DNA of 5,151 bases from Dictyostelium discoideum. Lineage: Eukaryota. Shown in pieces: positions 1 through 5,151 of the stretch. The stretch's first letter is position 1, and the number at the start of each line of letters is the position of its first letter. Location: the NCBI GenBank assembly GCA_000004695.1, contig CH709168.1:1-5151 (forward strand), written 5' to 3'. A program made the translations under genes and the position numbers. The notes beneath the pieces were generated by a model, which was not told the origin of the DNA, made no database searches, and saw only the letters and a list, made by a program, of their open reading frames with translations.

Positions 1-2
1 TA

Positions 3-461
3 ATGAATTTCCACTTGTTTTTATATTATCCAATTTATATAAAAAATTGGGGTGCACCAAAATACACTTCAGCTGAAACTTTTGAAGCACAATTATCAAG
101 AATTAAAAATTATTTAAATAATAATACAAATAATAGGGATGAACAATTTGAAAGGGTTACCAAATTAAACATGGTGAAATTTTTTAATTCAGTAGATAAA
201 TTAAAAAGTATTGAACCTGAAAGTACAGCATTAATTATTGGTAACAAAATAAAAAATCCAGATAATTTAGATAACATAAAAATTAAATTAGATTCATTAT
301 TTCAAAATTATAAAAATTTAACTTTTAACTCATCAATTAAAAATAATAAAGAAATATACAATGTTGGTGATGCCGTTGAAGTTGCATCATATAATGAACT
401 TTCAGGTAGATGGTCAGGTATTATCAATTCAATATCAATGATTGAAATGGATGATAACTAG
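3..461 (+). CDS. Hypothetical N/K-rich protein, 152 aa from the first ATG. It may be 5'-truncated, because the frame could be open upstream of the window start.
   Basis: Longest ORF in an AT-rich segment with yeast-like codon use. No recognisable motif and no similarity to the FLP N-terminal domain. The poly-N tract (NNNTNNRDEQ) is typical of AT-rich eukaryotic or plasmid proteins. Confidence 0.3.
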   Translation: MNFHLFLYYPIYIKNWGAPKYTSAETFEAQLSRIKNYLNNNTNNRDEQFERVTKLNMVKFFNSVDKLKSIEPESTALIIGNKIKNPDNLDNIKIKLDSLFQNYKNLTFNSSIKNNKEIYNVGDAVEVASYNELSGRWSGIINSISMIEMDDN

Positions 462-706
462 TAAAACATGAAATATTATTAAATTATTTTGACAAATATG
501 TTGGTGACCAATACCATTTTCTTTCAAATAAATTATTTTACATATGATAGTATTCTAAATATAGTTATACCAATTCAAATTGATGATACCAATTACCTTA
601 TAATTTACAAATACCATGATATATAATTATGACTGGTATTCACAAGTTGCTCCCTTCATCTGCAAAGTATAAAGAGATATAGGATGCAAATCAAGTATTC
701 AAGCAC

Positions 707-1307
707 TTGTCTACTATCAAAGTTATCCCCAAGTACATATACACTGCGCTATTAAACAAGACACTTGTACTCTTGAAAATGTTTGGTTTATCAAGATCAT
801 CAGACTTAGTGAAGTGGTCGTTCAAAGGTCTCATTATTACTACTGACTCAATCAAAGGTCCAGTTATCAATGCTAAAGAACAAAGAAGTGGTGTTGTTTC
901 AATCTTAGAATTAACATCGTTAGATGATACTAACTCTCAAGTATGTCCTGTTCGACCTTGCAACATACCTTAGAGCCTCTAAAGGAAGAAGAAAGCCCCA
1001 TTGGGGTGACTCTGTCTTTATTAAGAATGAGGGTGAACCGCTCCAAGTTAATGATATAAATTCAATTGTATTATCAACACTCTCAAGCTCCGGTATTGAT
1101 ACTAGAAAGTTCAAATCTCACTCTATCCGTTCCGCTATGGCTTCTCTGCTGTTGTTCAATAACGTTCCGTTCCATGTTGTCAAGAAGATGGGTCGCTGGA
1201 AATCAAACGATACTGTAGATACCTTCTACGATAAAAGAATCATTGGTGAAAAATCTGGTGGTATTTTCATTGATACTGTCGTTCAAATAAATAAATGTTA
1301 TTCATAA
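707..1307 (+). pseudogene. Tyrosine recombinase catalytic domain, FLP- or Crypton-like, interrupted by a +1 frameshift near 950-960 and lacking a proper ATG start.
   Basis: Translation gives GLSRSSDLVKWSFKG (box I Arg, compare FLP GRFSDIKNVDPKSFK), then SQVCPVR, and after the frame change LATYLRASKGRRKP...KSHSIRSAMASLLL (H-x-x-R), GRWKS (the G-x-W) and the nucleophile Tyr in DTFYDKR. The R...H..R...W...Y spacing of ~150 aa matches FLP R191-Y343. Frame 2 (707-973) and frame 0 (924-1307) overlap, so one base is missing or added near 950-960. The only possible starts are TTG at 707 or an ATG at 779, just before the catalytic Arg. Confidence 0.6.
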
Positions 1308-1321
1308 TATATATATATATT
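1308..1321. repeat. (TA)n dinucleotide microsatellite immediately after the recombinase stop codon.
   Basis: A tatatatatatat run read directly from the sequence. Confidence 0.8.
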
Positions 1322-1357
1322 TAATATAAAATATAATTTAATAAATTAAATTTTTAA

Positions 1358-1680
1358 TTCTCATTTAATACCAATTCACGTAGCCAACCTTCTCATAATG
1401 ACTCTGACACTGAGAATGAACAAAGTGATGATGAATCAAGTAACAATGTCGATGTTCCAACCGATTATCAATTATCCGATACCTTACTTGGTCAGTACAA
1501 ACATATGGTAAACAATCAAGGTTTACTCGTCAAAGAAGAATGTATCCTCAAGAAAGATGAGATATCCGAATTGAATAAAATATTCAATTTTCCATCTAAC
1601 ATCCAAGTGAATGTCGCTCCATTCGGTACACCTGAAGGTATTACTGTATCATTCAACGTCAAGAACAATGATACTGACTA
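1358..1680 (+). CDS. Acidic S/D/E-rich ORF fragment of 107 codons, open from the preceding stop, with no in-frame ATG until codon ~50. It is a possible C-terminal exon or a pseudogene.
   Basis: Open frame reading ...HNDSDTENEQSDDESSNNVDVPTDYQLSDTLLGQYKHMVNNQGLLVKEECILKKDEISELNKIFNFPSNIQVNVAPFGTPEGITVSFNVKNNDTD*. Codon use is coherent and yeast-like (TTA, GGT, CCA, GTC). A 37-codon ATG-initiated ORF lies in another frame at 1397-1510. Confidence 0.3.
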
Positions 1681-1735
1681 GTTATTAGTCAATGACAAGT
1701 GGTTGGTGAAAGGTTTACAGGTGGAGTTGTATTGA

Positions 1736-1777
1736 CCACCATGACCTTAGTCAAGTAGCGCATTGTGTCACGTAATT
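1736..1777. repeat. Left arm of a 42-bp inverted repeat. The inner 30 bp (1748-1777) are perfect.
   Basis: tagtcaagtagcgcattgtgtcacgtaatt is the exact reverse complement of 1979-2008. The match extends to 40/42 identity over 1736-1777 versus 1979-2020. Confidence 0.9.
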
Positions 1778-1978
1778 GGGATAAGATCAACAGCATTAAC
1801 AGGCTGGCCTGCCTTTGATGAGGCGTTAGGTAACGAGTACACATTTTCAGAAGTGATGGTCAGGTTCATACTACGCTCCGTTCGCGTTTGAACTTCAGGC
1901 TTAACGCAGAAGGTATATATAACGATTCTATTCATTTGAACTACGGTATTGTTGATCTTAATCGTGGGCGTGTATCCG

Positions 1979-2020
1979 AATTACGTGACACAATGCGCTA
2001 CTTGACTAGGGTCATGTTGG
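1979..2020. repeat. Right arm of the 42-bp inverted repeat. It encloses a 201-bp core (1778-1978).
   Basis: aattacgtgacacaatgcgctacttgacta is the reverse complement of the left arm. The whole element spans 1736-2020 (285 bp). Confidence 0.9.
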
Positions 2021-2030
2021 CTTAATTGAA

Positions 2031-2059
2031 AGAGGGGATGTACTACATCCTCTTTTTTT
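2031..2059 (+). terminator. Rho-independent terminator-like hairpin followed by a T7 run.
   Basis: agaggggatg tacta catcctct followed by ttttttt. The stem is ~10 bp with one G bulge or G-U pair. No A-tract precedes it, so it is unidirectional on the + strand. Confidence 0.5.
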
Positions 2060-2095
2060 GATCTATTGATATGTAAAGTTTTACACAGTACCGGA

Positions 2096-2101
2096 TATAA
2101 T
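2096..2101 (+). promoter_or_regulatory. Perfect sigma70 -10 hexamer TATAAT. The -35 is weak: GTAAAG at 17 bp, or TTTACA at only 10 bp spacing.
   Basis: Hexamer read from the sequence. No convincing -35 is present, so this is speculative. Confidence 0.2.
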
Positions 2102-2136
2102 GTGTAGGGATAACCTCTCTGCATGCAAGTACTCCA

Positions 2137-2559
2137 AAAGATTAAAATTATTATGACGAAGATTAACACCCTCATTAAGGGTATGGCTTGACCAGAACAC
2201 ATGTTATCCCCTTATTTTTCTTTTAAGTCAATGGAGGAATGTCATGCCATGTAAATCTTTTGATTTTGGTAACTGTACAAAACGCACTGCAGCGGCCGAT
2301 AAAGCCAAGCGAGATGCTAATCCAATTCTTCGTACTCAGTTACTGAAGAAGATTCGTTAATGACTGATCGGCAAGCCAGCATCTCCAGAATGGTAGAACT
2401 GGATCTCTTGGTAGATCAGCATTAAAAGCCAAAAGACACAACTTAACCCAGAACATATTGCCATGATAATCGAACTGCTTGGTGAGGGTAATTGCAGAAA
2501 TGCTTAATATCGATAGATCAAAAATATTCCGTTATCGTAAAGAGAACGGTATCGTATAG
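2137..2559 (+). pseudogene. Decayed serine recombinase of the DNA invertase / resolvase family (Hin/Gin/Cin-like). It carries several frameshifts and stops, and the N-terminal catalytic Ser region is missing.
   Basis: Frame 0, 2157-2360: TRLTPSLRVWLDQNTCYPLIFLLSQWRNVMPCKSFDFGNCTKRTAAADKAKRD..., compare Gin [36 protein letters not shown]. Frame 1: NGRTGSLGRSALKAKRHNLTQ, compare NKGRIGGRPPKLTKAE. Frames 2 and 1: IIELLGEGNC / RVIAEMLNIDRSKIFRYRKENGIV*, the typical C-terminal HTH ending ...IA..L.IsRSTiYRY. The VW motif at 2181 to the C-terminal stop at 2559 is 378 nt; the equivalent distance in Gin is ~375 nt. The only intact piece is a 38-codon ORF at 2244-2360 with a GGAGG Shine-Dalgarno site at 2233-2237. 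Confidence 0.5.
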
Positions 2560-2562
2560 CTC

Positions 2563-2595
2563 AAAAAGACCAGCCAATAACACTGGTCTTTTTTG
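2563..2595 (+). terminator. Intrinsic terminator immediately after the invertase-remnant stop codon.
   Basis: aaaAGACCAG ccaataaca CTGGTCTttttt. A 7-9 bp stem, 9-nt loop and T5 tail, preceded by an A-run, so it could act on both strands. Confidence 0.6.
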
Positions 2596-2754
2596 TAATC
2601 ACCAAACAATGATATCCGTTGCAGTTTTCCTGGTAGGAACTCTAAGACAACCTAAGTTCAATCAGTAGGGGTTAACCAGACCTTTTGGTGAAGTGTTAGT
2701 ATTGACTGTAATAGCTATAGAGCTACGTGAAATTCGAATGGGTGTCACCCAATT

Positions 2755-2844
2755 GGAGAATTGTCCGAGTGGTTCAAGGTAACGGTCTTGAAAACCGTCG
2801 GGCGGGAAACCGCTCCTAGAGTTCGAATCTCTAATTCTCTGCCA
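2755..2844 (+). tRNA. tRNA-Ser, anticodon UGA, type II with a long variable arm and genomically encoded CCA.
   Basis: Acceptor GGAGAAT/ATTCTCT, then G and CCA. Anticodon stem ACGGT/ACCGT with loop CTTGAAA. Perfect T-arm TAGAG-TTCGAAT-CTCTA. GGTCTTGAAAACCG and GAGTTCGAATCTCT are near-identical to E. coli serT. Positions 1-72 form a G-U pair and 10-25 a U-U pair, both slightly unusual. Confidence 0.85.
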
Positions 2845-2975
2845 ATTAAGATCTAAAGAAATCGCTATACGGTCACGAACGGGGATCGATAAAAGCCTAA
2901 GAGTGAAAGCCTCTACCGTTCTCTCAAACAGGGTTCAGCACTCTGTCTATAACGTATAAAGGAAAAGGAAAGATA

Positions 2976-3263
2976 ATGGCTACTAAGATTTCAATTACCC
3001 GTGCATTGGCCACAGTTAAATCCATGTCCAACGGTCTGATGCTTATTTCACTAACTCGCGGTACTGATGAGTTCGCCCAAGAAGCTGGTTTCAATGATTC
3101 CGTTGGGGCGGTTTCTGATGCGATCAAAGAAAACTACCAGGGTTTACAAGATATCATTCGTGTGCATGAAGATATCCTTGCTAAAGTGATCTTGTCCAAC
3201 GATACTACGCTTATTACCGTAGCTGGCAAAGAATACTGTGTGGTGTATTCTTTGCCACGATAG
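2976..3263 (+). CDS. Hypothetical protein, 95 aa.
   Basis: ATG preceded by AAGGAAAAGGAAAG (Shine-Dalgarno-like). E. coli-like codon usage (CGT, GGT, CTG, AAA, GAA). No recognisable motif. Confidence 0.5.
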   Translation: MATKISITRALATVKSMSNGLMLISLTRGTDEFAQEAGFNDSVGAVSDAIKENYQGLQDIIRVHEDILAKVILSNDTTLITVAGKEYCVVYSLPR

Positions 3264-3270
3264 GGAATCG

Positions 3271-3543
3271 CTAATCTGGGAATTCATCACGACGCATTAC
3301 ATCAGAAGAGACGTTCTGAACAAACACGGTAATCTGTGCAATTAAGTAATTGCTTACAACAGCGAGTTCGTCTTTGGCAGCTTTCAGACCAAAGATAACC
3401 GACTCACCCGTAATACATTCTGCATCAGCAAAAGTCAATGCGGTAGCAATTATTTGTACGGCAGATGCACCATTATACTCCTCAAGTGACGAAACCACAG
3501 AGGCAGGGTTAACTTCAAGTTGGCCAATTTCAATAGCTGCCAT
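3271..3543 (-). CDS. Hypothetical protein, 90 aa, convergent with the previous ORF across a 7-bp gap.
   Basis: Coherent codon usage. The overlapping + strand ORF (3350-3631) is S/A/T-rich and low-complexity, so the minus frame is preferred. The ribosome binding site is weak. Confidence 0.4.
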   Translation of the reverse strand: MAAIEIGQLEVNPASVVSSLEEYNGASAVQIIATALTFADAECITGESVIFGLKAAKDELAVVSNYLIAQITVFVQNVSSDVMRRDEFPD

Positions 3544-3656
3544 AACTCTAGCCTATAACTCTTGTGCTTTTGTTTCGTTCATGGATGTACGCACAAAAAG
3601 CAAATTTAAATTTAATTTAAAGCGAATTTAAAGTCCTGTACAAAAGCAATTTTTAA

Positions 3657-3734
3657 GGTAATTTTAAAGGTAATTTTTAAGGTTACTTTAAAACCACCTT
3701 ATAAATTACCTTTATAATTACCTTAGAAATTAAC
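3657..3734. repeat. Array of a 12-bp motif, three direct copies followed by three inverted copies. Together with flanking AAAGCAATT half-sites it forms a ~110-bp imperfect palindrome (~3640-3752).
   Basis: Direct copies: GGTAATTTTAAA, GGTAATTTTTAA, GGTTACTTTAAA. Centre: aCCACC. Inverted copies: TTATAAATTACC, TTTATAATTACC, TTAGAAATTAAC. The latter are reverse complements of the same motif. Confidence 0.75.
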
Positions 3735-3828
3735 TTTTTAATTGCTTTAAAAGCGAGGTCCTGAGTTCGAAGCCGTTATTTAACGGATAAATTTTATAAA
3801 AATTTTTTTTGAATTTTTTGAAAATTTA

Positions 3829-3870
3829 CCAAAAGGGTAGTCTCATCAATCAAAGGGTAGTCTCATCAAC
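3829..3870. repeat. Two tandem 20-21 bp direct repeats (iteron-like).
   Basis: caAAAGGGTAGTCTCATCAAt immediately followed by cAAAGGGTAGTCTCATCAAc. A 7-bp inverted repeat TCATCAA...TTGATGA follows at 3864-3897. Confidence 0.8.
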
Positions 3871-3998
3871 CATTACACCATTTGATTGCTTTGATGATAA
3901 TTTAAAAATGATAGAATATTTTATCCCCATTTTTTTGATCTAAAATTAGATGTTTTTTATTAAAAACCTTAAATTTATATTTAAAGGAAATTTTAATT

Positions 3999-4042
3999 CA
4001 CTTTAAATCTACTTTAAATCAACTTTAAATCCTCTTTAAAAT
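3999..4042. repeat. Four tandem 10-12 bp units with a CTTTAAAT core, phased at the helical repeat.
   Basis: cactttaaat, ctactttaaat, caactttaaat, cctctttaaaat. Similar TATCTTAAAA(A)T units occur at 4075-4097. Confidence 0.7.
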
Positions 4043-4056
4043 TATTTTAAAATAAT
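4041..4056. repeat. 16-bp perfect palindrome ATTATTTTAAAATAAT.
   Basis: The sequence equals its own reverse complement. Confidence 0.85.
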
Positions 4057-4162
4057 TTTTAAAGGCATTTTTAAATATCTTAAAATTATCTTAAAAATTA
4101 CCTTGAAAATGAATTTTTTAAACCCGGCTTTAAATTCAATTTAATTCCAATTTAAATCAACT

Positions 4163-4184
4163 TTGCTTTAAATTTGCTTTAAAT
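4163..4184. repeat. Tandem duplication of the 11-mer TTGCTTTAAAT.
   Basis: ttgctttaaat followed directly by ttgctttaaat. Confidence 0.8.
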
Positions 4185-4249
4185 GTGGATTTTTCTGTGC
4201 TGCACATGCACATAATGCATTAGGCGAGAAACGCGATATTGTCAAAGCT

Positions 4250-4453
4250 TTGAAAGCCAACTACGAATCGATATCTCGTCACAACGGTAACTCCAATTTT
4301 GACCAGCGTGAAAATACCGCGCGCACCGAAGCATTCAACGGTACTAAGAAAGCCGATGAAGCTTCCATTGCTGTGTTCGTTAATCCAGTTATCGAACGTT
4401 ATCAGCCAGGCGTGCTGTATCCGCTGGAGATCAGCAAAGTAATCAAGCAGTAG
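4250..4453 (+). CDS. Hypothetical protein, TTG start per the ORF track. The frame is open from 4172 and resumes after the TAG at 4451 for 29 more codons, to 4543.
   Basis: E. coli-like codon usage (CTG, CGT, CCG, GGT). No ATG anywhere in frame from 4172. The TAG at 4451-4453 is followed in frame by EKEILDFEANIDYALTESTKIEIVDGVVV*. Confidence 0.4.
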   Translation: MKANYESISRHNGNSNFDQRENTARTEAFNGTKKADEASIAVFVNPVIERYQPGVLYPLEISKVIKQ

Positions 4454-4776
4454 GAAAAAGAGATTCTGGATTTCGAAGCCAACATTGATTACGCGTTAAC
4501 TGAATCTACCAAAATCGAAATTGTAGATGGTGTGGTAGTTTAATTAAATTAAAAAGCTTGTCTTCGTTTGACGAATAGTCGAACACCGCCCTTGGGAGGT
4601 TAAACCACCAGCTCACTATATACACGCTGTGGGTCGATGGTTCGAGTCATTTCTGTGGAAACACAGTAGCTCGGTCGGTTATAGCAATAGTCAAAACATT
4701 AAATAAATAACACCTAGCATGATCCAAATTACAGAATGTGGTATTCGATATCACCACGTCCGTAAGATTAGTATAT

Positions 4777-4807
4777 AGGATGGTTTTACCCCTCCTGGTT
4801 TTATTTT
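4777..4807 (+). terminator. Weak terminator-like hairpin followed by a T-rich tail.
   Basis: AGGATGG ttttacc CCTCCT ggttttatttt. The stem is imperfect and not associated with any upstream ORF. Confidence 0.2.
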
Positions 4808-5057
4808 GAGATGAATGTCCGTCATTAGGCACCCTTAATAGCGGAAGGCGGTGAATTGGAGACTTGGGACGTGGCTGAAAGTATGCCAGCAAATAACCGA
4901 CGCTTACACTTTGGTGTAAGTAAACCACAATCAACCGCGTAGCATCTAAAAATAAAAGAACAATGACAGAAGCACTTCCGATATTACGTGGTTGGGTGTT
5001 GTAGAAGTCTGACGGTCAACCCCGCCATCGGTCACCTATTAAGAGGATTAGTTTACC

Positions 5058-5151
5058 ATGGAAATTCCAAAAAGCTATGTGGCAACTGATTTTAAATATG
5101 TTAACAACCAACCTTATGTGCGTGGTCAGCGTGTATTAATAATAATGCCTA
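5058..5151 (+). CDS. 5' part of an ORF running off the window (MEIPKSYVATDFKYVNNQPYVRGQRVLIIMP...).
   Basis: ATG preceded by AAGAGGA ~11 nt upstream. The frame is open to the window end. Confidence 0.4.
   Translation, partial: MEIPKSYVATDFKYVNNQPYVRGQRVLIIMP

Follow-up and report, generated by a model that had tools for sequence, protein, structure and literature searches.

The window analysed here is a stretch of 5,151 nucleotides of Dictyostelium discoideum DNA (contig CH709168.1, positions 1-5151, assembly GCA_000004695.1), in which a tRNA-Ser(UGA) gene (2755-2844, + strand) precedes the two separated halves of a phage protein gene, phrog_1491. The DNA from position 1684 to the end of the window at 5151, and beyond it, is most probably a horizontally acquired, multi-copy, decaying fragment of a jumbo-phage genome lying among D. 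discoideum repeats. Going by its sequence relatives, the donor would be an unsampled jumbo bacteriophage related to Agricanvirus (Erwinia phage Ea35-70) and Salmonella phage SA002. The reading draws on the identity of the parts, an empty site for the DNA that splits the phage gene, a gene order observed in phages and the fact that independent assemblies contain the locus. It would mean that a collinear jumbo-phage piece of several kb, comprising a tRNA, protein genes and non-coding DNA, has become fixed in a centromeric retrotransposon cluster of a bacterivorous model eukaryote. The original prediction for this locus had treated the tRNA gene as an integrase attachment (att) site with a degenerate copy of its T-arm downstream; there is no att duplication and no tRNA-targeted island.

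A split phage gene in a host repeat cluster

The phage gene is present as two halves on the + strand. Its N-terminal half, now a pseudogene (2976-3236), matches phrog_1491 profile positions 1-95 (E=3.9e-16) and has 46% identity to residues 1-100 of Ea35-70 gp199; the open reading frame (ORF) that contains it runs over 2976-3263. The C-terminal half (4206-4540), which has 45% identity to gp199 residues 103-211, contains an in-frame TAG at 4451-4453, with 4202-4450 matching profile positions 102-182 (E=6.9e-7) and 4454-4540 matching positions 184-208 (E=0.018). The two halves together span positions 1-208 of 211, and the joined protein aligns at 97% coverage with single, uninterrupted genes of ~211 amino acids in 665 phage records. 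The best of these records are the Agricanvirus jumbo phages of Erwinia (Ea35-70 gp199, 44%) and Salmonella phage SA002 (36%), and the best IMG/VR relative reaches 47% amino-acid identity. Ea35-70 encodes PhuZ tubulin and a nuclear shell protein, so the phage relatives are nucleus-forming jumbo phages.

The same locus occurs in a second assembly, GCA_054883475.1, on contig JBTAPE010000033.1 (4.886 Mb, hereafter L003). The window aligns to L003 146-5305 at 99.77% identity (3 substitutions and one 9-bp indel), and all window junctions are common to the AX4 contig and the second assembly. On L003 the locus is terminal, the contig stopping 145 bp past the window, and a complete copy of the retrotransposon DIRS-1 is found ~1.5 kb upstream of the window sequence. 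GC content is 22% in 1-624 and 3597-4205, 34-35% in 625-1683 and 40-43% in 1684-3596 and 4206-5151, giving 41-42% overall in the phage-assigned DNA against 22% in the flanks. The window is nuclear D. discoideum DNA from a DIRS-1-rich chromosome end. DIRS-1 clusters of this species are described, in the portions of PMC2665215 and PMC7192593 consulted, as located only at centromeres and heavily fragmented through nested insertions; going by this literature the chromosome end is centromeric, and it probably belongs to chromosome 1.

Further copies carry their own damage. Contig JBTAPE010000037.1 of the second assembly (61.8 kb, hereafter L004) has a copy of the phage gene without window positions 3048-3142, and the window and L004 carry different lesions. 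A third copy, of the N-terminal half, is DDB_G0267286 on AX4 chromosome 1 (95% amino-acid identity). Its number is close to those of DDB_G0267296, a recombinase, and DDB_G0267298, a homologue of a 152-aa ORF at the left end of the window; taken as adjacency, this close numbering suggests that the whole block was duplicated. Logan contigs joining related DNA to DIRS-1 sequence come from at least 7 samples. The exons of the AX4 gene model DDB_G0294314 correspond to window ORFs. This spliced model and ACTFIT_003263 (2976-4453) connect both halves of the phage gene through frame +2 of 3350-3631, opposite a reverse ORF, and both are annotation artefacts on pseudogenes; DDB_G0267286 likewise corresponds to the N-terminal half of the phage gene. 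No exact-protein match to the window ORFs was obtained because the source annotation uses spliced gene models; matches among eukaryotic proteins were confined to D. discoideum, a result that depends on gene models.

The L004 copy of the gene (9953-10505, ~90% nucleotide identity) supplies the empty site. It connects window position 3236 to 4206 via 19 nt, reading GAATAC-ACCATCGTGGCTGCGCTGG-ATGCAC, which translates as GKEYTIVAALDARN where the phage counterpart is GKEYTIVEALDFRN. Because L004 and the phage orthologues both join 3236 to 4206, 3237-4205 is a 969-bp insertion that replaced 19 bp. Besides this insertion, phrog_1491 in the window has a frame change between its halves, the TAG at 4451 and, relative to the L004 paralogue, a 21-bp deletion at 3020/3021. 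In place of the TAG, TTG (Leu) stands in the paralogue and Leu or Met in the phages, which indicates a point mutation; reassignment of TAG, considered as several ORFs end in this codon, was rejected on that basis. Also rejected was a self-splicing intron as the 969-bp interruption, there being no Rfam group I or group II intron match at E<=1 across the whole window. The interruption consists of a host repeat plus filler.

Phage-like sequence continues downstream of the gene. A non-coding stretch at 4548-4697 (+) is conserved with the DNA right after Ea35-70 gp199 (4548-4686, 71% nucleotide identity to positions 5660-5811 of the Ea35-70 sequence, L002). Another at 4803-4956 (+) is conserved with SA002 DNA upstream of MGA_206 (76-85% nucleotide identity to positions 6778-6909 of the SA002 sequence, L001). 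In L003, an ORF beginning past the window end starts MTSTIDYDAIVQELEKS and resembles the MGA_206 start of SA002, MAAINYDAIAQELKRG. The fragment retains the phage order tRNA-Ser(UGA), phrog_1491 gene, conserved non-coding stretches and MGA_206-like gene.

The neighbourhood of the tRNA gene has phage counterparts too. Same-strand tRNA genes lie within 3 kb of the phrog_1491 homologue in 8 of 11 IMG/VR loci (L013-L023), 7 of these 8 being multi-tRNA clusters that include tRNA-Ser(UGA), and in Ea35-70 and SA002 alike a tRNA adjoins the phrog_1491 gene. By these comparisons, tRNA plus phrog_1491 gene appears to be a conserved phage gene order. As this arrangement is a phage trait, the tRNA is assigned to the phage fragment and is not an integrase-targeted host gene; and since the ORF directly 3' of the tRNA is the N-terminal half of a conserved phage gene, the DNA there is taken as ancestral, collinear phage sequence. 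The window shares with the Ea35-70 gp199 and SA002 MGA_205 regions and the IMG/VR loci the tRNA gene(s), the ~210-aa gene and the conserved non-coding DNA, and their strand, and its tRNA resembles those of large-phage loci in being of bacterial type with an encoded CCA. Unlike in those phages, the block stands in a eukaryotic chromosome, its gene is split and carries a stop codon and deletions, one tRNA is left, and protein identity to the nearest phage is 44-48%.

Some features of this conserved region are of interest in their own right. The description of phrog_1491 as 'tail fiber protein' is an annotation label. In diverse large phages (IMG/VR loci L014, L016-L018 and L021-L023) the gene is found within or beside tRNA arrays of up to 20 genes, an unusual setting for a gene encoding a tail fibre; the annotation may be mistaken. 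At 4641-4697 a T-arm-like string, GGTTCGAGTC, is followed by a D-arm-like one, GTAGCTCGGTCGGTTATAGC, and similar strings are kept in Ea35-70 at ~5760-5820 of L002 (GGTTCGATTCC ... GTAGCTCAGTCGGTTAGAGC). Neither ARAGORN nor Rfam called a tRNA at 4641-4697 or at the Ea35-70 counterpart; the strings may be remnants of a tRNA array, or a tRNA-like element common to these phages. The stretch at 4803-4956 keeps its 76-85% nucleotide identity although the neighbouring proteins are merely ~36-41% identical. Its consensus fold, from two sequences only, has a long closing stem, and 3 of the 32 pairs of the fold are changed on both sides. It has no Rfam match and could be a structured RNA or a leader upstream of the MGA_206-like gene.

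The tRNA gene and the supposed attachment site

The gene at 2755-2844 is a class II tRNA-Ser(UGA) of bacterial or phage type with an encoded CCA, called by ARAGORN and by Rfam (RF00005, 48.6 bits against a gathering score of 29). It has a 7-bp acceptor stem, a long variable arm, a UGA anticodon, a TTCGAAT T-loop and the discriminator G73, and its 3' end, at 2835-2844, reads ...TTCTCTGCCA. A gene-encoded 3' CCA is common in bacteria and phages, unlike in eukaryotic nuclear tRNA genes. The two non-canonical pairs of the original prediction can be read directly from the sequence: the acceptor stem GGAGAAU/AUUCUCU gives a G1-U72 pair, and the D stem UCCG/AGGU gives U10-U25, Rfam also flagging 10-25 as non-standard. 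An alignment to phage tRNAs, which had been proposed, was made with a comparison set of five phage tRNA-Ser genes and an Escherichia coli serT sequence. The tRNA-Ser of Pseudomonas phage AUS531phi has 82-84% identity to the window tRNA. The window has T10, T25 and T72 where the consensus of the set, serT included, has G10, C25 and C72, and these changes produce the two non-canonical pairs; T10 and T72 likewise occur in the tRNA-Ser of phage Pm5461. The score of 48.6 bits is slightly under those of the five phage genes (53-63 bits). Both alternatives in the original suggestion, a phage-encoded or a slightly degenerate copy, find support. We infer the direction and timing of the changes, and T10, T25 and T72 would represent decay after transfer of a tRNA that is presumably out of use.

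The tRNA sequence is the same in the second assembly. Its A box, TGTCCGAGTGG, matches 10 of 11 positions and its B box, AGTTCGAATCT, 9 of 11 positions of the eukaryotic consensus, a resemblance only. The first TTTT on the 3' side is at 3568, 724 nt away, and the usual polymerase III terminator is missing. The minimum-energy fold around the D stem, weakened by U10-U25, is not a cloverleaf. No tRNA-targeted retroelement stands beside the gene in a comparison with the L003 and L004 repeats.

The recombinase remains that made the tRNA look like an attachment site belong to DIRS-1. The 3' part of this element (625-1357, +; 91% to the L003 and L004 DIRS-1 copies) comprises a tyrosine-recombinase pseudogene followed by outer-end terminal-repeat sequence. 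The pseudogene, at 629-1292, is the C-terminal region of the DIRS-1 recombinase, with an in-frame stop near 680, a frameshift near 955 and a match to Pfam PF00589 (E=2e-9). The ORF at 924-1304 is assigned to DIRS-1 because the D. discoideum DIRS-1 proteins to which it has 96% amino-acid identity carry reverse-transcriptase, RNase H and integrase domains. A 5' internal fragment from the ORF1 region follows (1358-1683, +; 96% to L003 1392-1717 and L004 1849-2174). Homology to the L003 and L004 DIRS-1 copies ends at 1683, which places the host/foreign junction at 1683/1684. The complete DIRS-1 in L003 has 302-nt inverted arms (805-1106 and 5204-5505) that are 99% complementary; the window holds the element as fragments only (625-1683, 91-96% identity). 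Two recombinase fossils had been predicted within 2 kb upstream of the tRNA; tyrosine-recombinase remains are indeed there, but they are a single broken DIRS-1 gene, with 1.07 kb of unrelated DNA lying between it and the tRNA. DIRS-1 integrates into other DIRS copies and does not use tRNA att sites. Window 625-1683 is, at this identity, like the centromeric DIRS-1 clusters described in the consulted portions of PMC7192593 and PMC2665215. In contrast to DIRS-1 itself, the window tRNA and phage-like DNA lie outside the element, as cargo trapped between DIRS-1 fragments.

The T-arm match fares no better as an att copy. The two strings that match lie at 2814-2827 and 3759-3771, each shifted by one base from the 2815-2828 and 3760-3772 originally given, and the 13/14 match with one indel is present. 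It is made up of TCCT and the 9 exact bases GAGTTCGAA, with the indel between them, and is not a 12-mer. The window contains 252 exact same-strand 9-mer pairs, and in 12.5% of 200 composition-preserving shuffles the tRNA has at least one 14-mer match elsewhere in the window with at most one error, at odds with a repeat unexpected by chance. The 'partial T-arm copy' TCCTGAGTTCGAA (3759-3771, +) is moreover a fixed, internal part of the host repeat described below as repeat X: the L003 copy of X has TCCGGAGTTCGAA there, standing as GGTCCGGAGTTCGAAGCC over L003 5901-5918, far from any tRNA.

The boundaries of the insert also lie elsewhere. The duplication was to delimit a ~0.95-kb insert at 2845-3775, and comparison with an empty site had been proposed; when run against the L004 paralogue and phage orthologues, it placed the junction at 3236/4206 and not at 2844/3775. 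The two convergent small ORFs said to be carried by the insert exist (2976-3263, +; 3271-3543, -), but the first is the N-terminal half of the phage gene that resumes at 4206, and the real insert splits that ORF rather than carrying both. The locus does resemble the tRNA att sites of phage and genomic-island integrases in having a tRNA-Ser gene, a tyrosine-recombinase remnant less than 2 kb away and a short downstream T-arm match, all of which are present. It differs from them in that a retrotransposon encodes the recombinase, the repeat does not exceed chance and lies inside a host repeat, and the empty site has different boundaries, the last of which we count as a refutation. For these reasons there is no att site, and a model in which TCCTGAGTTCGAA at ~3760 is the degenerate far end of a 0.95-kb element inserted at the tRNA is scarcely credible.

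Origin of the fragment

We propose that a repeat-rich chromosome end took up jumbo-phage DNA by non-homologous joining, infected prey bacteria being the most likely source of that DNA. Later, the phage gene would have been broken by the 969-bp insertion of filler and AT-rich host repeat, and the block and the DNA around it would have undergone copying in the repeat cluster at least three times. The in-frame stop, the small deletions and T10, T25 and T72 in the tRNA would be fossil decay. Terminator hairpins of prokaryote type (see below) and the GC contrast also count toward a phage or prokaryote origin.

Several points weigh against this account. Searches of phage records, IMG/VR, GTDB genomes and Joint Genome Institute (JGI) metagenomes turned up no closer donor, the best match being at 47-48% amino-acid identity; IMG/VR gave no exact DNA match, and protein-pattern scans of IMG/VR, GTDB and JGI metagenomes gave nothing nearer than 47%. 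About half of the 41-42%-GC DNA, namely 1684-2754 and 3237-3596, has no recognisable phage homologue, and a phage origin of these parts would follow from contiguity, composition and terminator hairpins. The far junction of the fragment lies outside both assemblies, the second ending 145 bp past the window. AX4 copy number, chromosomal assignment and presence in other Dictyostelium species are known through annotated proteins only. Finally, the tRNA is still well formed at 48.6 bits, and its inactivity is something we infer.

The lack of a phage homologue for half of this DNA would also be expected if the block had arrived not as free phage, but through a bacterial genome or symbiont with phage remnants, or through another mobile element; 3237-3596 and a Logan contig (L010) show that such DNA has been shuffled among loci. 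This route is improbable, as those genes and non-coding stretches that can be recognised follow, for more than 2 kb, the order found in lytic jumbo phages, and 185,579 bacterial and archaeal species genomes yielded distant homologues only (<=32% over full length), all of them metagenome-assembled. Similarly improbable, perhaps a shade more so, is a co-option of the tRNA, in which RNA polymerase III would still transcribe it as a working tRNA-Ser or TFIIIC would bind it as a chromatin boundary in the centromeric cluster; if true, this would be a bacteriophage tRNA gene put to use by a eukaryote. The gene is far better kept than the neighbouring protein gene and unchanged in two assemblies, its A and B boxes are near the eukaryotic consensus, and the chromosome 1 centromere is described as having two tRNA genes, one apparently functional (Glockner and Heidel 2009, PMC2665215, consulted in part), of which the window tRNA may be one. 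The missing TTTT over 724 nt downstream, the absence of an adjacent tRNA-targeted retroelement and the weakened D stem with its non-cloverleaf fold argue against use, and a 90-nt gene may stay intact by chance where, across 5 kb, 3 substitutions and one 9-bp indel are all that distinguishes the two assemblies.

Dictyostelium is commonly cultured on enterobacteria, which raises the prospect of a chimeric assembly in which phage reads from a food bacterium were misjoined to Dictyostelium repeats. The window is an unplaced 5-kb contig and the locus in the second assembly is at a contig end, as such an error might leave it. Identical junctions in a chromosome-scale assembly generated independently, at 99.77% identity, make this a very unlikely explanation; a host repeat sits inside the phage gene, at least three copies are 5-10% diverged, differently broken and DIRS-1-flanked, junction contigs between phage-like and DIRS-1 sequence occur in at least 7 read sets, and pseudogenes are unexpected of a live contaminating phage. 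A horizontally acquired jumbo-phage fragment remains our preferred explanation.

To our knowledge, fossils of tailed-phage DNA in eukaryotic chromosomes are rarely documented. The literature searched contained no report of phage DNA in a Dictyostelium genome, nor of these gene identifiers. Foreign-DNA fossils in eukaryotes are known; new here are the tailed jumbo-phage donor and the still well-formed tRNA gene. Like viral and bacterial fossils in eukaryotes (endogenous viral elements; giant-virus fragments in amoeba genomes, as in the title of PMC5203793), the window fragment is integrated, duplicated and decaying, with no evident function. Unlike them, it would derive from a tailed bacteriophage unable to infect the amoeba, and it includes a tRNA gene along with non-coding phage sequence and is located in a cluster of centromeric repeats. 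The consulted portion of Glockner and Heidel (2009, PMC2665215) describes, in addition to the two tRNA genes, multiplied non-transposon regions exclusive to centromeres, without coding capacity and without a G/C difference from their surroundings. The window block fits the descriptions of multiplied regions and centromeric tRNAs and may be one such region, though it departs from them in the last two respects, and that portion of the account proposes no phage or foreign origin. If confirmed, the fragment would provide a concrete, datable entry of prey-virus-derived DNA into a phagotroph germline, repeat-rich centromeres would seem tolerant of such captures, and the AX4 models DDB_G0294314 and DDB_G0267286 would be artefacts built on phage pseudogenes.

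Inserted and flanking sequences

The insertion has two parts. Part 1 (3237-3596, - strand; 360 bp, 43% GC) contains the 90-aa reverse ORF (3271-3543) and is absent from the L004 paralogue and the phage orthologues. Its left junction is a fold-back palindrome, GGCAAAGAATAC-TGTGTG-GTATTCTTTGCC, at 3225-3254. Origin of the reverse ORF as an inverted duplicate of the phage gene was rejected, the likeness being a mere ~14-nt palindrome at the junction. Neither part 1 nor its ORF has a Pfam, PHROG or phage match. An all-against-library HMMER search with the reverse ORF returned three low-complexity matches and one real relative, P0069, itself without a phage match. The lone real relative of part 1 is a patchwork at 95-98% identity in the Logan contigs L010 and L011, which end in DIRS-1 sequence. 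L010 (SRR26869268, 1845 bp) is 44%-GC, prokaryote-like DNA; it contains rearranged pieces of window 3302-3495 at 95-98% identity and has DIRS-1 terminal sequence at its end. Its ORFs have weak phrog_3248 matches (E=3e-5 and 2e-3), on which we do not rely, and no phage tblastn match. Part 1 is probably another scrap of similar foreign DNA, and L010 and L011 suggest that Dictyostelium repeat clusters hold more DNA of this kind than the window alone.

Part 2 (3597-4205, 22% GC, no strand assigned) is repeat X, which is 81% identical to L003 6042-5579 and 94% identical to L003 795-653. It is built of TTTAAA-type units with 11-12 bp periodicity in a palindromic arrangement (repeat families D1-D5, inverted pairs I4 and I12), measures ~610-640 bp (609 bp in the window) and has imperfect terminal inverted repeats, CAGCRAAGAAAAA..CACCTTTAAARCAAATTTAAA. 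A 20-bp tandem duplication (3832-3871) in the window copy is missing from the L003 copy, which is split by DIRS-1 into flanks at 653-795 and 5579-6042; further copies are present in L004. Repeat X is probably a non-autonomous DNA transposon. An assignment of 3597-4205 to the DIRS-1 terminal repeat was rejected, the true arms being L003 805-1106 and 5204-5505, with X flanking DIRS-1 on both sides.

At the left end of the window, 1-624 (+) is a Dictyostelium-specific AT-rich repeat with 22% GC (94% nucleotide identity to L004 15616-14978). It contains the 152-aa ORF (3-461), whose protein has homologues solely among Dictyostelium hypothetical proteins, including DDB_G0267298 of AX4 chromosome 1.

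Between the DIRS-1 remnants and the tRNA, 1684-2754 (+) is prokaryote-like DNA with 40% GC and no match to the other Dictyostelium repeats in L003 and L004. Folding identified two hairpins of intrinsic-terminator type, at 2028-2058 and 2563-2596 (z = -5.1 and -4.7), with a T run after each; a general terminator scan had missed both, and folding confirmed them. At 2415-2560, two frames together spell a helix-turn-helix-like peptide, LNPEHIAMIIELLGEGN / VIAEMLNIDRSKIFRYRKENGIV, when the translations are read. This remnant has no PHROG match, and its sequence suggests a frameshifted small DNA-binding gene. The same stretch has an inverted repeat of 48 nt (1736-1783 and 1973-2020, 94% complementary, 189-nt spacer), also present in the second assembly.

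Two minor observations concern repeat X. Rfam matches to microRNA precursors on its hairpin are spurious, falling far under the gathering scores, and the repeat contains a B-box-like string, GAGTTCGAAGCC.

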